This document shows, one piece after another, positions 15,817-50,761 of a stretch of 59,609 nt of DNA. Position numbers and translations under genes: made by a program. Source of the stretch: a virus (lineage: Duplodnaviria > Caudoviricetes); the IMG/VR virus record IMGVR_UViG_3300046168_000017, positions 1 to 59,609 of that record. One strand, written 5' to 3'. Numbering within the stretch: position 1 is the stretch's first letter; every line of letters starts with the position of its first letter. The notes beneath the pieces were generated by a model, which did no database searches, had not been told where the DNA came from, and saw only the letters and a list, made by a program, of their open reading frames with translations.

Positions 15817-16176
15817 ATGAGTTCAGCATTTTATCAAAAGCATTCAGCAAAAAATCCAATAAAGCAATTACAACAAGCGTATGAAAATGCAGAAACTGGA
15901 GATCTTATAGACGAAAGTGTACATGAAAATACTACATACAAGTCTAATAACTTGAAAGATAAAATATCAGGGATGAAGTATAACGTTGAAAATATTAGTG
16001 AAATACAAGAAGATGACAAAGGTCAATTCATGACAACTCTAGATCAAGACGAGTCCTACGGTGGTCCAAGACCTACAAGTTCTACTGTTACAAATTACGA
16101 TCAAGGCAAAGATCAACCTAGAGATACGTTAAGACCTTACGCTGGAAAGTATTTTAAAAAACCAAGAAAAAGCTAG
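15817..16176 (+). CDS. Hypothetical protein with a degenerate SP-type leader
   Basis: MSSAFYQKHSAKNPIKQ parallels MSSPFQRAFAAKSPLPN of 13064. Confidence 0.7.
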   Translation: MSSAFYQKHSAKNPIKQLQQAYENAETGDLIDESVHENTTYKSNNLKDKISGMKYNVENISEIQEDDKGQFMTTLDQDESYGGPRPTSSTVTNYDQGKDQPRDTLRPYAGKYFKKPRKS

Positions 16177-16574
16177 TGAAAAAAATTTGGGAATGGTTAA
16201 GCGGTAACGTTATCAAAGATGTTGGTGAGGTTATTGACAATTTAACAACCACTGAAGAGGAAAAACTTCAAATCAAAAAAGACATACAAGTTATAGTTGA
16301 GAAAGCAGCTGCTACAGCTGAAGATCAAATAACAAAACGATGGGAAGCAGATATGACGTCTGACTCTTGGCTTAGTAAGAACACGCGTCCTATGGCACTT
16401 ATTTTCTTATCGTTTATGGCTATAGCTTTTATATGGGTGGATAGTCATCATGAAATATCTTTCACTGTAGAACAAGAGTGGATAGAATTATTAAAGCAAT
16501 TATTAACAACCGTATACGTAGCATACTTTGGCTCACGTGGTTTCGAAAAATATAAATCAATAAGTAATAAATAA
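16176..16574 (+). CDS. Holin-like membrane protein (GTA 3-TM holin type)
   Basis: RW..D..SDSWLSKN.RP motif followed by two hydrophobic helices and YFGSRG.EK; GTG start. Confidence 0.7.
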   Translation: MKKIWEWLSGNVIKDVGEVIDNLTTTEEEKLQIKKDIQVIVEKAAATAEDQITKRWEADMTSDSWLSKNTRPMALIFLSFMAIAFIWVDSHHEISFTVEQEWIELLKQLLTTVYVAYFGSRGFEKYKSISNK

Positions 16575-17189: not shown

Positions 17190-17406
17190 TATTAGAAAAA
17201 TTAGTATTGGATCTGACTACAAAAATGATGCTATGCATTATTCAGTAGGTCAACAGGTTTATGGTGGTCATGAAATATCTCATATACTTTTTGAAGATTC
17301 AGACAATTCTTATAATATACATATAAAGAAAAGCAACGAAGTATTGCCGTGGAAGAAATTTAACTCTAACATGGCAATATCAGTTGAGTATGATTTAGAG
17401 TATTAA
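17179..17406 (+). CDS. Hypothetical protein
   Basis: 75 aa; IRKISIG.DYK.DAMHY.VGQ; overlaps both neighbours. Confidence 0.75.
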   Translation: MPSNIRKISIGSDYKNDAMHYSVGQQVYGGHEISHILFEDSDNSYNIHIKKSNEVLPWKKFNSNMAISVEYDLEY

Positions 17407-18011
17407 TGAATAGTTTATATGACTTTATTGTAGAACCTGTAGGTGAAAAATACAGCAATACAATAAAAGTGGGTAACAAAGAATTAGTAGTTAACACTAA
17501 AATAGAAAACTGGAAATTCGTAAATAGAATAGCTAAGGTTATTAAGACACCTTTAGCATTTAAAACTTTAATAAAAAAAGGAGACCTAGTAGTTGTTCAT
17601 CAAAATGTTTTCAGAACATTTTATGACATGAAAGGTGTTAAGAAAAAAAGTAGATCTTATTTTAAAGATAATTTATATTTTTGTGCTATAGATCAAGTTT
17701 ATTTATATAAAAATAATAAAGGTTATCACTCGTTTGGTGATAGGTGTTTTATACAACCTATAAAAGATAATCAAGATCTAACACTAGATAAAGAGCGTAG
17801 TCTTATTGGTATACTGAAATATGGCAATAGCTCGTTAAACAAGCTAGAAATAACTCCTGGTGACCTAGTTGGTTATACACCAAATGGTGAATGGGAGTTT
17901 TTAGTTGATAACGAAAGACTTTATTGTATGAAATCAAATGATATTGTAATTAAGTATGAAAACCAAGGAGACGAAGAAAAATATAATCCAAGCTGGGCAA
18001 GTAGCAGTTGA
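17406..18011 (+). CDS. Tandem GroES-like protein
   Basis: Two halves, each with the GroES pattern (D.FIVEP...KKGDLV; GDRCFIQP...GILKYG...ITPGDLV...FLVDNERLYCMKSNDIV). Confidence 0.6.
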   Translation: MNSLYDFIVEPVGEKYSNTIKVGNKELVVNTKIENWKFVNRIAKVIKTPLAFKTLIKKGDLVVVHQNVFRTFYDMKGVKKKSRSYFKDNLYFCAIDQVYLYKNNKGYHSFGDRCFIQPIKDNQDLTLDKERSLIGILKYGNSSLNKLEITPGDLVGYTPNGEWEFLVDNERLYCMKSNDIVIKYENQGDEEKYNPSWASSS

Positions 18012-18231
18012 AGAATTAATAAAGGTAGCTAAAGAACCTATTGTAGATTCAGATGATGATATATCTGCTGATCGTTTAAAAAATGCAGCAGCAACAAAAA
18101 AATTAGCAATATTTGATGCTTTTGAAATATTAAATAGAATACAAGAAGAGCAAGATATGTTAGATGAAAAACCAAAAGAAATAAAACAAAGTAATTTTAA
18201 AGGCTTTGCGGAGGGTAGATCTAAAAAATAA
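17956..18231 (+). CDS. Probable terminase small subunit
   Basis: 91 aa, helical; directly upstream of terL and TAATG-coupled to it. Confidence 0.55.
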   Translation: MKTKETKKNIIQAGQVAVEELIKVAKEPIVDSDDDISADRLKNAAATKKLAIFDAFEILNRIQEEQDMLDEKPKEIKQSNFKGFAEGRSKK

Positions 18232-20453
18232 TGTATCAACAAAGTCTATATAAAGTATTACCCAACCACATAAAACCTAAGATTCTTAAAAAGATGAATA
18301 GGTACAAAAAGTGGGAATACGGTTACAACGAGGATCATGATGTAGTTGTGATAAGTAAAACCGGTAAAATTGGAGAGGTTTATGAAATACAAAACCTAAA
18401 AATAGCTTTGCCTGAAAAAAAAGATATTCATACGTTTGATAATAACAAATGGAACAAAACTGAATATCCTAAGGTTCTAAGCAAGATAAAAACAACGTTT
18501 GACTGGAAGCAATATCCACAAGATTTTAAAGAAAAATGGTATGATTACATTGATAAAGAGTTTACCCGTAGGGAGGAAGGTTTTTGGTTTTATAACAAAA
18601 ACGTTGCTACTTACCTTACTGGTACTCATTACATGTACTTGCAGTGGAGTAAAATTGACGTTGGGGCACCAGACTTTCGGGAATCAAATAGATTATTCTT
18701 CATTTTCTGGGAAGCTTGTAAGGCCGATATACGATCCTACGGACTGTGCTACCTTAAGAATCGTCGATCAGGCTTTTCCTTTATGGCATCAGGAGAGGTG
18801 GTCAACTTGGCTACAATATCCTCCGACTCTAGATATGGAGTATTATCTAAGACTGGACCTGATGCGAAGAAGATGTTTACAGACAAGGTGGTACCGATAT
18901 CCGTTAATTATCCATTCTTTTTCAAGCCGACCCAGGACGGTATGGACAGGCCCAAGACCGAGCTTGCCTATCGTGTCCCAGCCACAAAATACACCCGTCG
19001 TAAGCTTACCTCGTCCACCACGGAAGAAATTGCCCAAGAAGAATTACAAGGCTTGGACACCACAATCGACTGGAAGAATACGGGTGACAACTCCTACGAT
19101 GGTGAGAAACTCAAACTCCTCGTCCACGATGAGAGCGGTAAATGGGAAAGGCCGAACAACATCCTCAACAACTGGCGTGTTACGAAAACAACCTTAAGAC
19201 TAGGTAGTAGAATTATAGGTAAGTGTATGATGGGATCAACATCAAACGCTTTAGATAAAGGTGGTAGAAACTTTAAGAAATTATATGACGACTCTGACGT
19301 TACAAAAAGAAACAGCAATGGACAGACTCGCTCAGGACTCTATTCTTTGTTCATACCTATGGAATGGAACTACGAAGGATACATTGATTCTTATGGCTTA
19401 CCTGTATTCGACACACCAAAAAAACCTATTGAAGGACCACAAGGTGATAAAATAAAAATAGGTGTAATAGAGTATTGGAACAACGAGGTAGAAGGACTTA
19501 AAGACGATCAAGACGGTTTAAATGAATTTTATAGACAGTTTCCACGTACAACTAAGCACGCTTTTAGAGACGAATCAAAAGAGTCTTTATTTAATCTAAC
19601 TAAAATATATCAACAAATAGATTTTAATGAAGATTTAAAAAACTCTATAAATGTAACAAAAGGTAGTTTTCAATGGGAAAACGGAGACAAAGACACTAGA
19701 GTTATATTTGTGCCAAACAAAAACGGTAGATTTTTTATAAGTTGGGTACCTCCTGTTAGTTTACAAAACAAAAGGTTTTTAAAAAATGGAGTTAATTATC
19801 CAGGTAACGAACACTGTGGTGCTTTTGGTTGTGATCCATATGATATATCAGGGACAGTAGATAAAAGAGGTTCTAATGGATCTTTACACGGTTTAACTAA
19901 GTTTAGCATGGAAGAGGTTCCAGCAAATCATTTTTTCTTAGAATACATAGCTAGACCACAAACTGCTGAGATATTTTTTGAAGATGTATTAATGGCTTGC
20001 GTGTTTTACGGCATGCCAATATTAGCTGAAAACAATAAGCCAAGATTACTTTATTATTTTAAACGTAGAGGTTATAGAGGTTTTGCTATGAATAGACCAG
20101 ATAAAAAAAGAAACAAACTATCTGTAACAGAAAGAGAAATAGGTGGTATACCTAACTCAAGCGAAGATATTAAACAAGCACACGCTTCTGCTATAGAAAC
20201 TTACATAGAGCATTTTGTTGGATTAAAAGAAACTGGATATGGTGATATGTATTTTCAACGAACCTTAGAAGATTGGTCTAAATTTAATATAAACAACAGA
20301 ACGTCTCATGATGCTTCTATTAGTTCTGGCTTAGCTTTAATGGCTTGTAACAAACATAGGTATTCACCGACAAATAGAAAAGAATTAAAACCAGTTGATT
20401 TAGGTATTAAAAAATACGACAACAAAGGAGCTATATCAAAAATTTTAAATTAA
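18231..20453 (+). CDS. terL: Terminase large subunit
   Basis: Walker A LKNRRSGFS, Walker B LLVHDESGK, coupling motif MMGST, nuclease GCDPYD; precedes the portal. Confidence 0.93.
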   Translation: MYQQSLYKVLPNHIKPKILKKMNRYKKWEYGYNEDHDVVVISKTGKIGEVYEIQNLKIALPEKKDIHTFDNNKWNKTEYPKVLSKIKTTFDWKQYPQDFKEKWYDYIDKEFTRREEGFWFYNKNVATYLTGTHYMYLQWSKIDVGAPDFRESNRLFFIFWEACKADIRSYGLCYLKNRRSGFSFMASGEVVNLATISSDSRYGVLSKTGPDAKKMFTDKVVPISVNYPFFFKPTQDGMDRPKTELAYRVPATKYTRRKLTSSTTEEIAQEELQGLDTTIDWKNTGDNSYDGEKLKLLVHDESGKWERPNNILNNWRVTKTTLRLGSRIIGKCMMGSTSNALDKGGRNFKKLYDDSDVTKRNSNGQTRSGLYSLFIPMEWNYEGYIDSYGLPVFDTPKKPIEGPQGDKIKIGVIEYWNNEVEGLKDDQDGLNEFYRQFPRTTKHAFRDESKESLFNLTKIYQQIDFNEDLKNSINVTKGSFQWENGDKDTRVIFVPNKNGRFFISWVPPVSLQNKRFLKNGVNYPGNEHCGAFGCDPYDISGTVDKRGSNGSLHGLTKFSMEEVPANHFFLEYIARPQTAEIFFEDVLMACVFYGMPILAENNKPRLLYYFKRRGYRGFAMNRPDKKRNKLSVTEREIGGIPNSSEDIKQAHASAIETYIEHFVGLKETGYGDMYFQRTLEDWSKFNINNRTSHDASISSGLALMACNKHRYSPTNRKELKPVDLGIKKYDNKGAISKILN
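18541..19197 (+). CDS. Candidate overprinted gene in the +1 frame of terL; lipoprotein-like signal and Pro/Arg-rich tail
   Basis: Open from 18499 (232 codons; ATG at 18541); KTLLLTLLVLITCTC; coincides with a local GC rise. Confidence 0.45.
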   Translation: MITLIKSLPVGRKVFGFITKTLLLTLLVLITCTCSGVKLTLGHQTFGNQIDYSSFSGKLVRPIYDPTDCATLRIVDQAFPLWHQERWSTWLQYPPTLDMEYYLRLDLMRRRCLQTRWYRYPLIIHSFSSRPRTVWTGPRPSLPIVSQPQNTPVVSLPRPPRKKLPKKNYKAWTPQSTGRIRVTTPTMVRNSNSSSTMRAVNGKGRTTSSTTGVLRKQP

Positions 20454-47873: not shown

Positions 47874-48037
47874 TGACTGAGCAAATAAAACTATACATAA
47901 TAAATGCCTCAACGCTAGGTGTTACAACTTTTACTACCTTAGAAATGGGTATGAAAATATTGCTTTTAGCAGTAACAATAGGTTATACCGTTACTAAATG
48001 GATAAATTTAAATAAAAAAGATGAGGACAATAAATAA
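47873..48037 (+). CDS. Putative small holin (not in the ORF track)
   Basis: Read by hand: MTEQIKLYIINASTLGVTTFTTLEMGMKILLLAVTIGYTVTKWINLNKKDEDNK; hydrophobic helix plus charged tail; overlaps the endolysin start. Confidence 0.65.
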   Translation: MTEQIKLYIINASTLGVTTFTTLEMGMKILLLAVTIGYTVTKWINLNKKDEDNK

Positions 48038-48446
48038 AATTATTGTTCACTGTTCAGCTACACAAGAAGGTAGAGATTTAGATGCCGCTGAAATAAATAA
48101 ATGGCATTTAAAAAGAGGTTGGAACGGCATTGGTTACCACTATGTAGTTTTATTAGATGGTACTATAGAATACGGCCGTAGTATATACAAACAAGGCGCT
48201 CATGTTAAAGGTGAAAATGAAGGTTCTATAGGAATTTGTTACATTGGAGGCGTCGAATCAGAACGTGGATCTAACGGCAAATGGATTGCTAAAGATACTA
48301 GAACACCTGAACAAAAAGAAAGCTTGTTATTGTTGCTTAAAACATTAAAAAAAATGCATTCGAAGGCTACAATACATGGTCACAACGAGTTTGCAGCAAA
48401 GAGCTGCCCGTGCTTTGATGCTAATAAAGAATATTGTAATATATGA
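48021..48446 (+). CDS. Endolysin, N-acetylmuramoyl-L-alanine amidase (T7 lysozyme-like)
   Basis: IIVHCSAT, IGYHY, GAH, SIGICYIGG, GHNEF..KSCP zinc-amidase motifs. Confidence 0.93.
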   Translation: MRTINKIIVHCSATQEGRDLDAAEINKWHLKRGWNGIGYHYVVLLDGTIEYGRSIYKQGAHVKGENEGSIGICYIGGVESERGSNGKWIAKDTRTPEQKESLLLLLKTLKKMHSKATIHGHNEFAAKSCPCFDANKEYCNI

Positions 48447-48821: not shown

Positions 48822-50540
48822 CTAACCATCACAAGCTAAACAATCTTCATTCATTGCTTGCTGTGCAATATCTCCACGCAAGACAGATTCTGTCCTCGTG
48901 TAATATAAGGTTTTAACACCTTTTTTCCATGCTTCAAAATGAACCTTGTTAATCCACTTTGGTGTTGCTACGCTAGGAAAAGCTAAGTTTAAACTAACCG
49001 ACTGATCTACATATTGCTGTCTTAGTCCAGCTTGATTAACTAATTCTAATTGATTAATCTCCTTAAAAGTTTTAAATACCTCCTTTGCGGGTGTTTCGTG
49101 TGCCAACACAACATCATCAAGCTCAATAATATTTTGCACACTACCACCATCAGCCATGATTTTATCCCACGTTTCATTATTATTTATTTTAAGTTTTCTT
49201 AATAGTTTCAATAAAGTAGGATTCTTACGTATAAAGGTTCCTTTGGCCGTCTGCTCTGTAAAAACATTTGCTGCCCAAGGTTCTATACCCGGCGAAACAT
49301 TGCCACTAAGCTTGCTATTAGAAACAGTGGGAGCCACAGCGCGTAAATGAGTATTACGCATACCAGTTCCAGAACACCATAAAGGTTCTCCATAAGTTTC
49401 TGCAAGTGCCATACTAGCCCTTTCACTTTCAATTTTAATTTGACTAAATATTTTCCTAGTTTCAAACTGAGCAAGTAAACCTTCGAACGATATACCTTTT
49501 TCTTGTAAGTACGTGTGCCAGCCCAAAACTCCCAAGCCAAGCGCTCTTCCTTTCGTAGCTGACCTAACCGCGTTTTCAAAGCCTCGTAAGCCTTTAGCTC
49601 GTTGTATAAACTCTTCCATGACTCCATCAAGGAACCATATACTGTCGTAAATAAGGTTTGTACCTTTCCACTCTTCATATTTTGCTAGATTTAATGATGA
49701 TAAACAACATACAAAACTGTGGTTTTCATCAGTGTGTAACGTGATCTCTGAGCATATGTTTGTCATGTGTACTTTGAGACCATTGTCTTTGTACGCTTTG
49801 GGGTTATTTTTATTTGTGTTCCCTTTAAATAGGATATAAGGTTCTCCAGTAGCTTTACGTTTTTGAAGAAGTTTTCCCCAACGTTTTCTTGCTTGTTTAT
49901 CTCCAGCTTCAAGTCTTCGCATGAATTTATCGCCGACAATAGCACACTGGTGCAAGTTGAGCGATTGACGATTGACGTCTCCTTTGGGTTCACGTATTTC
50001 AAGCCACTCTTCGAAATCGGCGTGATCAATATTAATATTAACCGATGCTGCTCCTCGTCGGACAGATCCTTGATTAGTGGCAAGTATAGTTGAGTCGTAT
50101 ATTTTACAAAACGGCACAACTCCATCACTTGTTCCATTACCTGTTATTTTAGCGCCGGCGGGTCTTATTTGATTTATACCGATACCTACTCCACCGCCGT
50201 GCTTAGCGAGTAGCATCATCTCTAAGTTTTTTTGCCCAATGTCTTGTATAGAATCAGCCACATCGATACCAAAACAGCTAATAGGTAAACCGCGATCAGT
50301 ACCTGTATTGGACAACACAGGACTAGCCAAACAAAGCCAACCATTCCAAATGTAATCAAAAAACCTTTCTGCCATTTCGGGTTTATATAATCGTCTAGCA
50401 ACAGTTTTAGCCACACGCATATAAGCATCACGTGGAGTTTCATCTTGTAGTAAATACCCACCAGATATTGTTTTTTTATACACTTCAGTATCTCCCCACT
50501 TTGGGTAGTCTTCTCCTTTAATCCACTCATTGTTCCACAT
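48822..50540 (-). CDS. nrdA: Ribonucleotide reductase alpha subunit, short with no ATP cone (NrdAi type)
   Basis: SPVLSN, PISCF, TNICSEI, VCCLSS, APTVSNS, TLYY and C-terminal CLAC; start reassigned to ATG 50540 (572 aa). Confidence 0.95.
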   Translation of the reverse strand: MWNNEWIKGEDYPKWGDTEVYKKTISGGYLLQDETPRDAYMRVAKTVARRLYKPEMAERFFDYIWNGWLCLASPVLSNTGTDRGLPISCFGIDVADSIQDIGQKNLEMMLLAKHGGGVGIGINQIRPAGAKITGNGTSDGVVPFCKIYDSTILATNQGSVRRGAASVNINIDHADFEEWLEIREPKGDVNRQSLNLHQCAIVGDKFMRRLEAGDKQARKRWGKLLQKRKATGEPYILFKGNTNKNNPKAYKDNGLKVHMTNICSEITLHTDENHSFVCCLSSLNLAKYEEWKGTNLIYDSIWFLDGVMEEFIQRAKGLRGFENAVRSATKGRALGLGVLGWHTYLQEKGISFEGLLAQFETRKIFSQIKIESERASMALAETYGEPLWCSGTGMRNTHLRAVAPTVSNSKLSGNVSPGIEPWAANVFTEQTAKGTFIRKNPTLLKLLRKLKINNNETWDKIMADGGSVQNIIELDDVVLAHETPAKEVFKTFKEINQLELVNQAGLRQQYVDQSVSLNLAFPSVATPKWINKVHFEAWKKGVKTLYYTRTESVLRGDIAQQAMNEDCLACDG

Positions 50541-50542
50541 AT

Positions 50543-50761
50543 TTAAATTATAAAATGTTTGATCCAAGCTATTAAACCATTTAAATTTAAAGCTACTAAA
50601 TTCCATTGTTTTCTTGATGACACTTGTATTATTACACATATAAAGCCTATAATAAATAATATAGGCTCTAATGTCCATTGGCCTGCCATCACAAAGCCAG
50701 CACCCATATAACCTACTCTAGTTGCTATCCGTTTCCACGGACTCAACCTTTTCTGTCTCAC
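50543..50761 (-). CDS. Small membrane protein
   Basis: 2-3 hydrophobic segments (GYMGAGFVMAG, ILFIIGFICVIIQV, WNLVALNLNGLIAWI); start uncertain (GTG 50761 or upstream). Confidence 0.6.
   Translation of the reverse strand: MRQKRLSPWKRIATRVGYMGAGFVMAGQWTLEPILFIIGFICVIIQVSSRKQWNLVALNLNGLIAWIKHFII

Follow-up and report, generated by a model that had tools for sequence, protein, structure and literature searches.

The closest described counterparts of the gene considered here are overprinted genes and envelope lipoproteins of phages. Rz1 of lambda and other embedded outer-membrane spanins (o-spanins) are lipoprotein-type products encoded wholly inside another late gene, in its +1 frame, with a proline-containing mature part for which no fold is confidently predicted. 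The overprinted lysis protein E of phiX174 consists of an N-terminal helix, which is its working part, and a basic tail. T5 Llp, Cor and Ltp are superinfection-exclusion lipoproteins: accessory, patchily distributed, small, folded and receptor-binding. Overlapping genes that arose de novo combine, according to a review (PMC8227390), a restricted distribution, an accessory role and a disorder-promoting composition. Here we describe a candidate gene of 218 codons plus stop, at positions 18541..19197 (+ strand), overprinted in the +1 frame of terL, the gene for the terminase large subunit (18231..20453, + strand, frame 0; 740 aa, with residues 21–737 matching phrog_6681, 'terminase large subunit', at E 6e-164). 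It lies in IMG/VR record IMGVR_UViG_3300046168_000017 (Duplodnaviria; Caudoviricetes), of which positions 1–59,609 were analyzed; this whole stretch of 59,609 bases, with 34% G+C, is called the window below.

The locus resembles each of these systems in part. With the embedded o-spanins it shares a putative lipoprotein-type product contained entirely in the +1 frame of a late gene, and a mature part with proline and without a confident predicted fold; it differs from them in its host gene, terL, in a strongly basic mature part of about 185 residues, in the Thr that precedes the Cys, in that no partner inner-membrane spanin (i-spanin) was found, and in being dispensable in many close relatives. 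With phiX174 E it shares +1 overprinting and an N-terminal hydrophobic helix that is the sole constrained part and is followed by a basic tail, but the phage at hand is a 60-kilobase (kb) double-stranded DNA (dsDNA) phage with its own holin and amidase, and the sequence of the helix differs between the two lineages that carry the gene (type A, to which the window belongs, and type B), while the terminal Cys is kept. Llp, Cor and Ltp provide a precedent for an accessory, patchily distributed envelope lipoprotein; unlike them, the product here lacks Pfam or PHROGs matches beyond one marginal hit given below, has a variable tail without a confident fold, and is encoded in a late packaging gene. 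The profile of de novo viral overlapping genes fits as well, with an old, conserved gene as host to a younger frame, although most documented cases come from small RNA or single-stranded DNA viruses, whereas this one lies in the terminase ATPase domain of a tailed dsDNA phage, leaves a visible footprint in the G+C content of third codon positions (GC3), and shows a presence/absence polymorphism spread by recombination. No description of a terminase-nested gene with these features was found in the full-text literature searched, most subscription journals lying outside it.

A second open frame within terL

The preliminary description of the window had placed an open reading frame (ORF) at 18499–19197 (+) in the +1 frame of terL, and it is indeed there: 232 aa from a TTG start, at an offset of 268 (3 × 89 + 1), within a stretch that is open from stop to stop for 235 codons (18490–19197). 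Across 13 other large + strand genes no +1 stretch stays open for more than 77 codons, and in the 7-kb giant ORF, for which the same description had noted the lack of any long +1 ORF, the maximum is 47 codons. Relatives of terL were collected by an IMG/VR search, which gave at least 80 loci at 75–90% amino acid identity and 81 sequences with the window; all class counts in the following rest on the matches listed. These sequences were classed by the end of the ORF (n = 81; 32 ending at terL codon 317–324, 18 at codon 294, 10 at codons 245–279, and 21 without a long ORF) and, separately, by ORF length, ORF end and GC3 together (n = 81; 50 full-class, 12 partial and 19 ORF-less).

The case for coding is carried by the stop codons. 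Synonymous shuffles, in which the TerL protein and the codon usage of the G+C-rich island described below were kept and +1 stops were counted, predict 6.57 stops (standard deviation 1.55) in codons 104–321 of the window; there are none, and 0 of 20,000 shuffles were stop-free. All 60 long-ORF sequences among the 81, window included, likewise have 0 +1 stops against 2.4–7.8 expected, in a comparison that is partly circular in that the region bounds were taken from the open stretch itself. In the remaining four frames (+2 and three antisense) stops occur at or above expectation. The same signal is seen at the level of single codons: in codons 104–293 of the 50 full-class sequences, NTA codons are followed by a pyrimidine 354 times and by a purine not once, and NTG codons by a base other than A 423 times and by A not once, whereas in codons 330–740 of the same 50 genes the base after NTA is a purine 1427 times (64%) and a pyrimidine 813 times, with a ratio of observed to expected stops of 0.98. 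Eleven other + strand genes of the window, used as a control, have about as many +1 stops as expected (226 versus 232.5 in the giant ORF). The open +1 frame is not a by-product of G+C content, and chance is excluded as its origin.

The frame coincides with a wobble-position G+C island (18600..19200, no strand assigned). In 300-nucleotide windows G+C peaks at 0.49 around 18650–19250, the highest peak of the window (mean 0.342, standard deviation 0.038), and the hand counts of the preliminary description, 32/60 G+C at 18961–19020 and 13/60 at 19621–19680, are exact. GC3 of terL is 0.51 in codons 104–321 versus 0.23 elsewhere, with 0.42 versus 0.37 for positions 1 and 2, and the island is almost purely a wobble-position effect. 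The reversion that had been claimed to follow the alternative stop is found in the relatives too, the GC3 step sitting at each lineage's own +1 stop codon: sequences whose ORF ends at codon 294 (n = 18) have GC3 0.64 in codons 260–293 and then 0.28 in codons 296–320, and those ending at 317–324 (n = 32) have 0.65, then 0.71 over the same two intervals, and 0.23 past codon 326. ORF-less sequences stay at 0.15–0.21 throughout, and island and long ORF co-occur exactly among the listed relatives. A higher-GC donor was considered and rejected, GC3 outside the island never exceeding 0.33 in any listed relative. The third position of a terL codon is the second position of a +1 codon, where T yields hydrophobic residues; A or G there, after a T, yields Tyr, Cys, Trp or a stop, and C yields Ser, Pro, Thr or Ala. 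From the genetic code, selection for an open and hydrophilic +1 frame would push the wobble bases of terL to C or G, and the island is supported as the footprint of the nested gene.

Translation would most plausibly start at ATG 18541, which is terL codon 104 (the nested gene, stop included, spans codons 104–322). Met is present at this place in 48 of the 50 full-class sequences, and in 13 of the 50 a +1 stop at terL codon 97, seven codons upstream of the Met, excludes an upstream start; TTG 18499 is a possible but less likely start. In a protein collection we found 82 relatives of the +1 product, mostly of 209–235 aa, all unnamed and from automatic gene calls, and database gene callers mostly begin at the Met equivalent to ATG 18541 (products of 209–220 aa). 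Such calls reflect gene callers sensing coding potential and do not imply that the protein exists. Some of the database entries (P0022, P0036, P0057, P0058, P0072, P0074–P0079 and P0081–P0083) are chimeric predictions, each with parts from the terL frame and parts from the +1 frame, probably as the output of gene callers tolerating frameshifts. An internal promoter ahead of the ATG was also considered. The Bacteroidetes-type motif used was TAnnTTTG, with TTTG 17–23 nucleotides upstream; a composite motif occurs at 18407 in the window, but no link to the ORF emerged, the simple motif being found upstream in 24/50 ORF-bearing versus 15/19 ORF-less sequences and the composite one in 2/50 versus 0/19, and this candidate was dropped.

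Elsewhere in the window, the large-subunit gene of ribonucleotide reductase (nrdA-like, 48822–50678, − strand; phrog_84, E 6e-153) has 23 +1 stops versus 37.8 expected and holds three +1-frame ORFs of 102–131 aa. Three further − strand genes are depleted in +1 stops (14 versus 20.5, 28 versus 36.9, and 17 versus 20.5), and + strand genes are not.

Persistence, constraint and loss among relatives

An open +1 frame of 150 codons or more is kept by 59 of the 80 listed relatives, i.e. by 60 of 81 sequences with the window. At 4-fold degenerate sites of codons 161–293, full-class sequences have a median pairwise identity of 0.38 versus 0.26 from composition alone, and at a threshold of 0.6 the 50 sequences fall into 22 single-linkage clusters, none of which contains a +1 stop. 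These comparisons point to long-term purifying selection for an open frame and not to a recent patch.

Constraint beyond openness is concentrated in the N-terminal part. The proportion of 4-fold sites that differ is 0.156 in ORF-bearing versus 0.509 in ORF-less sequences over codons 121–140, and 0.325 versus 0.486 over codons 141–160; elsewhere in ORF-bearing sequences it is about 0.5. The wobble base of terL is T at codons 126, 127, 129, 130 and 132 in 48–50 of the 50 full-class sequences, compared with 6–15 of the 19 ORF-less ones, and the fixed codons spell Leu-Leu-x-Leu-Leu and C-T-C-S-G in the +1 frame. Likewise, full-class sequences encode Tyr136 of TerL as TAC (50/50), Leu137 by a G-ending codon (50/50) and Gln138 as CAG (46/50), against 4/19 each in the ORF-less class. 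In the tail, several wobble positions are held at C, so that Ser or Thr takes the place of a +1 Leu, Ile or Met. Selection would thus appear to act on sequence in the N-terminal signal, and in the tail on openness and hydrophilic composition only. The preliminary description had looked to an alignment of relatives for a frame that stays open with suppressed synonymous variation: the frame does stay open in the 60 of 81, and suppression is found in the signal segment and not in the tail. Stops scattered through the frame in homologues, which it had named as speaking against a nested gene, do occur in 19–21 of the 80 listed relatives, but exactly in those that have no GC island.

The gene is far from universal. 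Seventeen of the 19 ORF-less sequences have stops in the signal-peptide region and no C-T-C-S-G. The other two, L032 and L047, keep the signal and C-T-C-S-G and run to a stop at terL codon 191, which gives a product of some 85 aa; GC3 is slightly elevated in them, and only over that short stretch. The minimal functional unit may be the signal plus some 50 residues. No second copy was found in five ORF-less records, one of them 100% complete, where the sole match was the broken +1 frame of terL with 8–14 stops. More distant relatives, i.e. MW202828 (61% identical), elemoC, phi19:3 and Calle_1, have no island and contain 16–24 +1 stops in terL codons 60–360. On a tree built from the C-terminal domain of TerL, sequences with and without the ORF intermingle, and well-supported branches require at least 10 changes; L045/L051, L052/L055 and L020/L026 are pairs of near neighbors in this domain of which one member has the gene and the other does not. 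A terL tree of the island region itself has too low a resolution to count the origins of the ORF-less alleles.

Recombination provides the means of exchange. Window and relative L001 share 94–99% nucleotide identity in codons 81–320 and 72–93% elsewhere in terL, and the window's terL is a recombinant mosaic. For its C-terminal half, the nearest sequences among the matches listed are the ORF-less L002 and L004. Taken together, the comparisons suggest that the ORF-bearing segment is exchanged as a unit by homologous recombination, and that the gene is accessory and evolutionarily dynamic, having been truncated or lost repeatedly. A recombinant patch from a higher-GC relative had been the other outcome held against a nested gene in the preliminary description; the exchange is real, while the donor of higher G+C is missing among the listed relatives.

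The distant cultured relatives of the window phage are the Flavobacterium 'elemo' podophages and Cellulophaga phages, with TerL 36–44% identical. For window positions 17900–19900, near-identical DNA covering part of the stretch occurs in 20 public runs that belong to 13 marine or seawater studies, with at least half of the sampled words found in 16 of the runs; the phage population appears widespread.

A further conserved element of terL is not part of the nested gene. The block at 19320..19394 (+ strand; about 75 nucleotides, terL codons 364–388) has near-fixed synonymous codons in all 81 sequences (TAT in 81/81, CCT in 80/81, TAC in 79/81), irrespective of ORF class. The +1 stretch 19255–19455 is open in 79 of 81, and codons 343–398 hold 3 stops versus 59.6 expected. 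RNA structure was rejected as an explanation, the consensus for 19281–19430 (36 sequences) having an energy of −6.2 kcal/mol and 0 compensatory pairs. Another small nested ORF, or a site that works at the level of DNA, may account for the block.

The predicted product and a sister lineage

Translated from ATG 18541, the product has the architecture that had been read from it before, namely a basic N-terminal region, a hydrophobic core with Cys at its end, and a tail in which Pro, Arg and Ser abound. Residues 1–20 (18541..18600, + strand) form a predicted signal n-region with K6, R12, K13 and K20, and residues 21–31 (18601..18633, + strand) a hydrophobic h-region with a 19-residue Kyte–Doolittle mean of 2.17. 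Invariant C-T-C-S-G (residues 32–36; 18634..18648, + strand), encoded by fixed terL codons, is a candidate lipobox or cleavage region. Next comes a basic tail with abundant Ser, Thr, Pro and Arg (18649..19194, + strand), which varies in sequence and length. The 185 residues from Cys34 (18640–19194) carry a net charge of +21, an isoelectric point of 11.0, 10% Pro and 21% Ser plus Thr. AlphaFold, given a 45-sequence alignment, predicts one helix at residues 11–34; the predicted local distance difference test score (pLDDT) is below 50 for residues 39–218, with a mean pLDDT of 40.6 and a predicted template modeling score of 0.15.

As a lipoprotein signal, the N-terminus fits in part. The window product has the charged n-region followed by the hydrophobic h-region, and both Cys32 and Cys34 fall inside the expected 15–35 residues from the N-terminus; the residue that precedes them is Ile or Thr. 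The lipobox consensus is given as [LVI][ASTVI][GAS]C in PMC6139136. We applied this consensus alongside a second criterion. The latter is the PROSITE-style lipoprotein pattern, and type-A proteins fail both. In type A, it is Thr and not Ile that stands before the Cys by virtue of the terL Tyr codon TAC in 50 of 50. The layout of a unimolecular spanin, which joins an N-terminal lipobox to a C-terminal transmembrane domain, is not seen in the product, the sole hydrophobic segment of which is N-terminal.

The second lineage, type B, came from one divergent database match that led to 61 further loci. TerL of this lineage is 66–68% identical to that of the window, and nested ORF and GC3 island are both there; in 10 of 10 sequences tested there are 0 +1 stops versus 4.1–6.9 expected. 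The type-B signal begins with a Lys-rich segment, continues with an Ile/Leu-rich core and ends in I-G-S-C; the Cys is residue 32 in all 14 distinct proteins. Its h-region has a different sequence and lies some 8–12 codons further upstream, the type-A helix being gone. All 14 pass the PROSITE-style pattern and fail the strict consensus, owing to a Gly two residues before the Cys, and in all 14 the terL Phe codon TTC places Ser instead of Leu before the Cys. In both types, then, a fixed codon, synonymous for TerL, places before the Cys the smallest residue that terL permits. What A and B appear to have in common is a generic export signal that ends in Cys after a small residue. Because of this shared signal a lipoprotein is favored, on a balance that is close to even. 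The occurrence in both lineages suggests that the nested gene is older than the divergence of these two terL lineages, which share 67% identity.

Competing explanations and proposed role

We consider it very probable, from stop depletion, persistence among relatives and class-specific constraint, that 18541–19197 is a real coding gene overprinted in terL, which upholds the hidden gene first proposed in the preliminary description. That its product is exported or targeted to the membrane is probable; that it is a lipoprotein is an evenly balanced proposition, for which the type-B signal speaks through its fit to the PROSITE-style pattern and against which the type-A motif speaks by failing both patterns. 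As an overall account, a real overprinted gene for a protein with an export signal and a basic tail is the explanation that we favor, and we hold it likely.

Several observations weigh against this account. The nested product has no known family (0 Pfam families at E up to 1), its sole match in PHROGs is phrog_30734 at E 0.038, and the ESM Atlas gave no usable look-alike. All 69 distinct type-A proteins (69/69) fail the two lipobox patterns, with Thr, Ile or Met preceding the Cys. From codon 161 on, 4-fold differences in the tail reach 0.5–0.68, near saturation, which leaves the tail free of constraint at the amino-acid level; this would be unusual for a protein that binds a specific partner. 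About 17–19 of the 80 listed relatives have lost the gene, and 19–21 of the 80 have no long ORF. The milder +1 stop depletion of four early genes on the − strand indicates some context bias, though nowhere near zero stops, and the terL sequences are related and hence not independent trials. Lastly, contigs of four RNA-library runs from two studies contain the stretch, which shows its presence only, and neither a transcript nor a start, strand or frame.

Among the alternatives, the one that survives best accepts the gene as real and takes its product as an uncleaved single-pass membrane protein, in which the helix does the work and the basic tail is merely present: a single-gene lysis factor or an inhibitor of a membrane target. 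One hydrophobic helix at residues 11–34, a constraint confined to that helix and its end with the tail basic and unconstrained, and the lipobox failure of type A all agree with it, as does the Pro found right after C-T-C-S-G in 21 of the 50 sequences, since Pro at that place disfavors cleavage by signal peptidase I right there. The type-B h-region, however, differs and is shifted, with the type-A helix lost, as for a generic signal and not a sequence-specific effector; A and B share a Cys at 32–34 downstream of the h-region, preceded by the smallest residue permitted; and a holin and an amidase are already encoded by the phage. Immediately upstream of terL, and oriented like it, are the holin gene (16176–16574; phrog_3427, E 5e-24) and a gene for a GroES-like co-chaperonin (17406–18011; phrog_13932, E 6e-22), and the amidase endolysin (48021–48446; phrog_822, E 2e-54) is some 30 kb away from the holin/terL region. 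We regard an uncleaved membrane protein as possible, yet rather unlikely.

An Rz1-like outer-membrane lipoprotein, the o-spanin that had been suggested initially, fares much worse and is in our judgment very unlikely. Embedding in the +1 frame, a lipoprotein-like signal and a mature part with 10% Pro and no confident predicted fold are what such a protein would bring, and no other coding-frame ORF of the window has a lipobox. Deviant lipoboxes are moreover tolerated by o-spanins, AWAC, LNGC and FVGC being cited in PMC6139136. But the gene sits in terL, neither in nor beside an i-spanin gene, and no i-spanin candidate (N-terminal transmembrane segment plus coiled coil) came up in a hydrophobicity scan or in PHROGs comparisons of 20 ORFs. 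It is also missing from about a fifth of the close relatives, with no replacement copy in the five records searched, and its tail has no conserved interaction motif. The accompanying statement that no spanin is recognizable in the window stands, the same scan and PHROGs searches having found none, and this leaves room for an outer-membrane role.

That there is no second gene at all, the open frame following from fewer A/T wobbles in a compositional or recombinant patch or in a nucleic-acid element, is highly improbable. G+C-rich sequence does contain fewer stops, the patch is exchanged by recombination, the tail shows no sequence constraint, and − strand genes show mild +1 stop depletion; on the other side, 6.6 stops are expected even with the island's own codon usage and none of the shuffles was stop-free, a purine follows NTA in 0 of 354 cases here and in 64% of cases in codons 330–740 of these genes, stops are depleted in the +1 frame alone, no listed relative has high GC3 outside the island, and synonymous constraint is limited to ORF-bearing sequences and to a segment that resembles a signal peptide. 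Least credible of all is programmed ribosomal frameshifting that would fuse an N-terminal fragment of TerL to the +1 sequence, for although many sequences have a +1 frame that extends, free of stops, from the ATG back to codon 87, and a few as far back as codon 59, and although database chimeras hop between the two frames, the stop at codon 97 in 13 of 50 full-class sequences leaves six codons before the Met, no conserved slippery site was seen on reading the sequence, the layout of n-region, h-region and Cys makes sense only at a free N-terminus, and chimeras are typical of error-tolerant gene callers.

For the real overprinted gene with its export signal, we propose the following course. Translation would initiate internally at ATG 18541 on a late mRNA that also encodes TerL. 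The N-terminal export signal, with its Lys/Arg n-region, Leu-rich h-region and C-T-C-S-G, would direct the product out of the cytoplasm; in the form that seems most likely, lipid modification at Cys34 would tether it to a membrane on the periplasmic side, and in an alternative form it would persist as an uncleaved signal-anchor protein. The strongly basic chain of about 185 residues past the signal, for which no fold is confidently predicted, might then act at the cell envelope late in infection, as an aid in breaching the outer membrane or by masking the cell surface. The freely varying tail speaks against a specific receptor interaction like that of Llp or Cor, and we lean slightly toward a non-essential envelope or exclusion role. 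The product is probably an exported, late, accessory and polycationic envelope protein that acts by composition and charge and not by a fold, probably with a lipid anchor.

In its most specific and frankly speculative form, which we put forward as an unlikely though attractive idea, this mobile accessory gene nested in terL of marine flavobacterial podophages would encode a lipid-anchored, polycationic chain that lacks a stable fold, a new kind of envelope effector that serves either as a spanin-independent breaker of the outer membrane or as a non-specific, surface-masking exclusion factor in Bacteroidota hosts. If so, the conserved flanks of terL would be ready-made homology arms for its spread between lineages by homologous recombination.

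The finding also has consequences for how such genomes are read. Annotation pipelines forbid fully nested genes, and because of this a conserved gene of some 218 codons is invisible in standard annotation; a wobble-position GC island with an edge that tracks an alternative-frame stop is usable as a screen for hidden genes in AT-rich phage genomes. As a standard phylogenetic marker, terL is affected in its own right, in that dual coding and segment exchange can distort terL trees, which may mislead for this group. Rarely can an overprinted gene of a tailed dsDNA phage be followed through birth, truncation, loss and spread by recombination within one group of close relatives, as is the case here. 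Little is known of the ways in which Bacteroidota phages handle the outer membrane and superinfection, and an exported late accessory protein of this type would be a candidate for either task.

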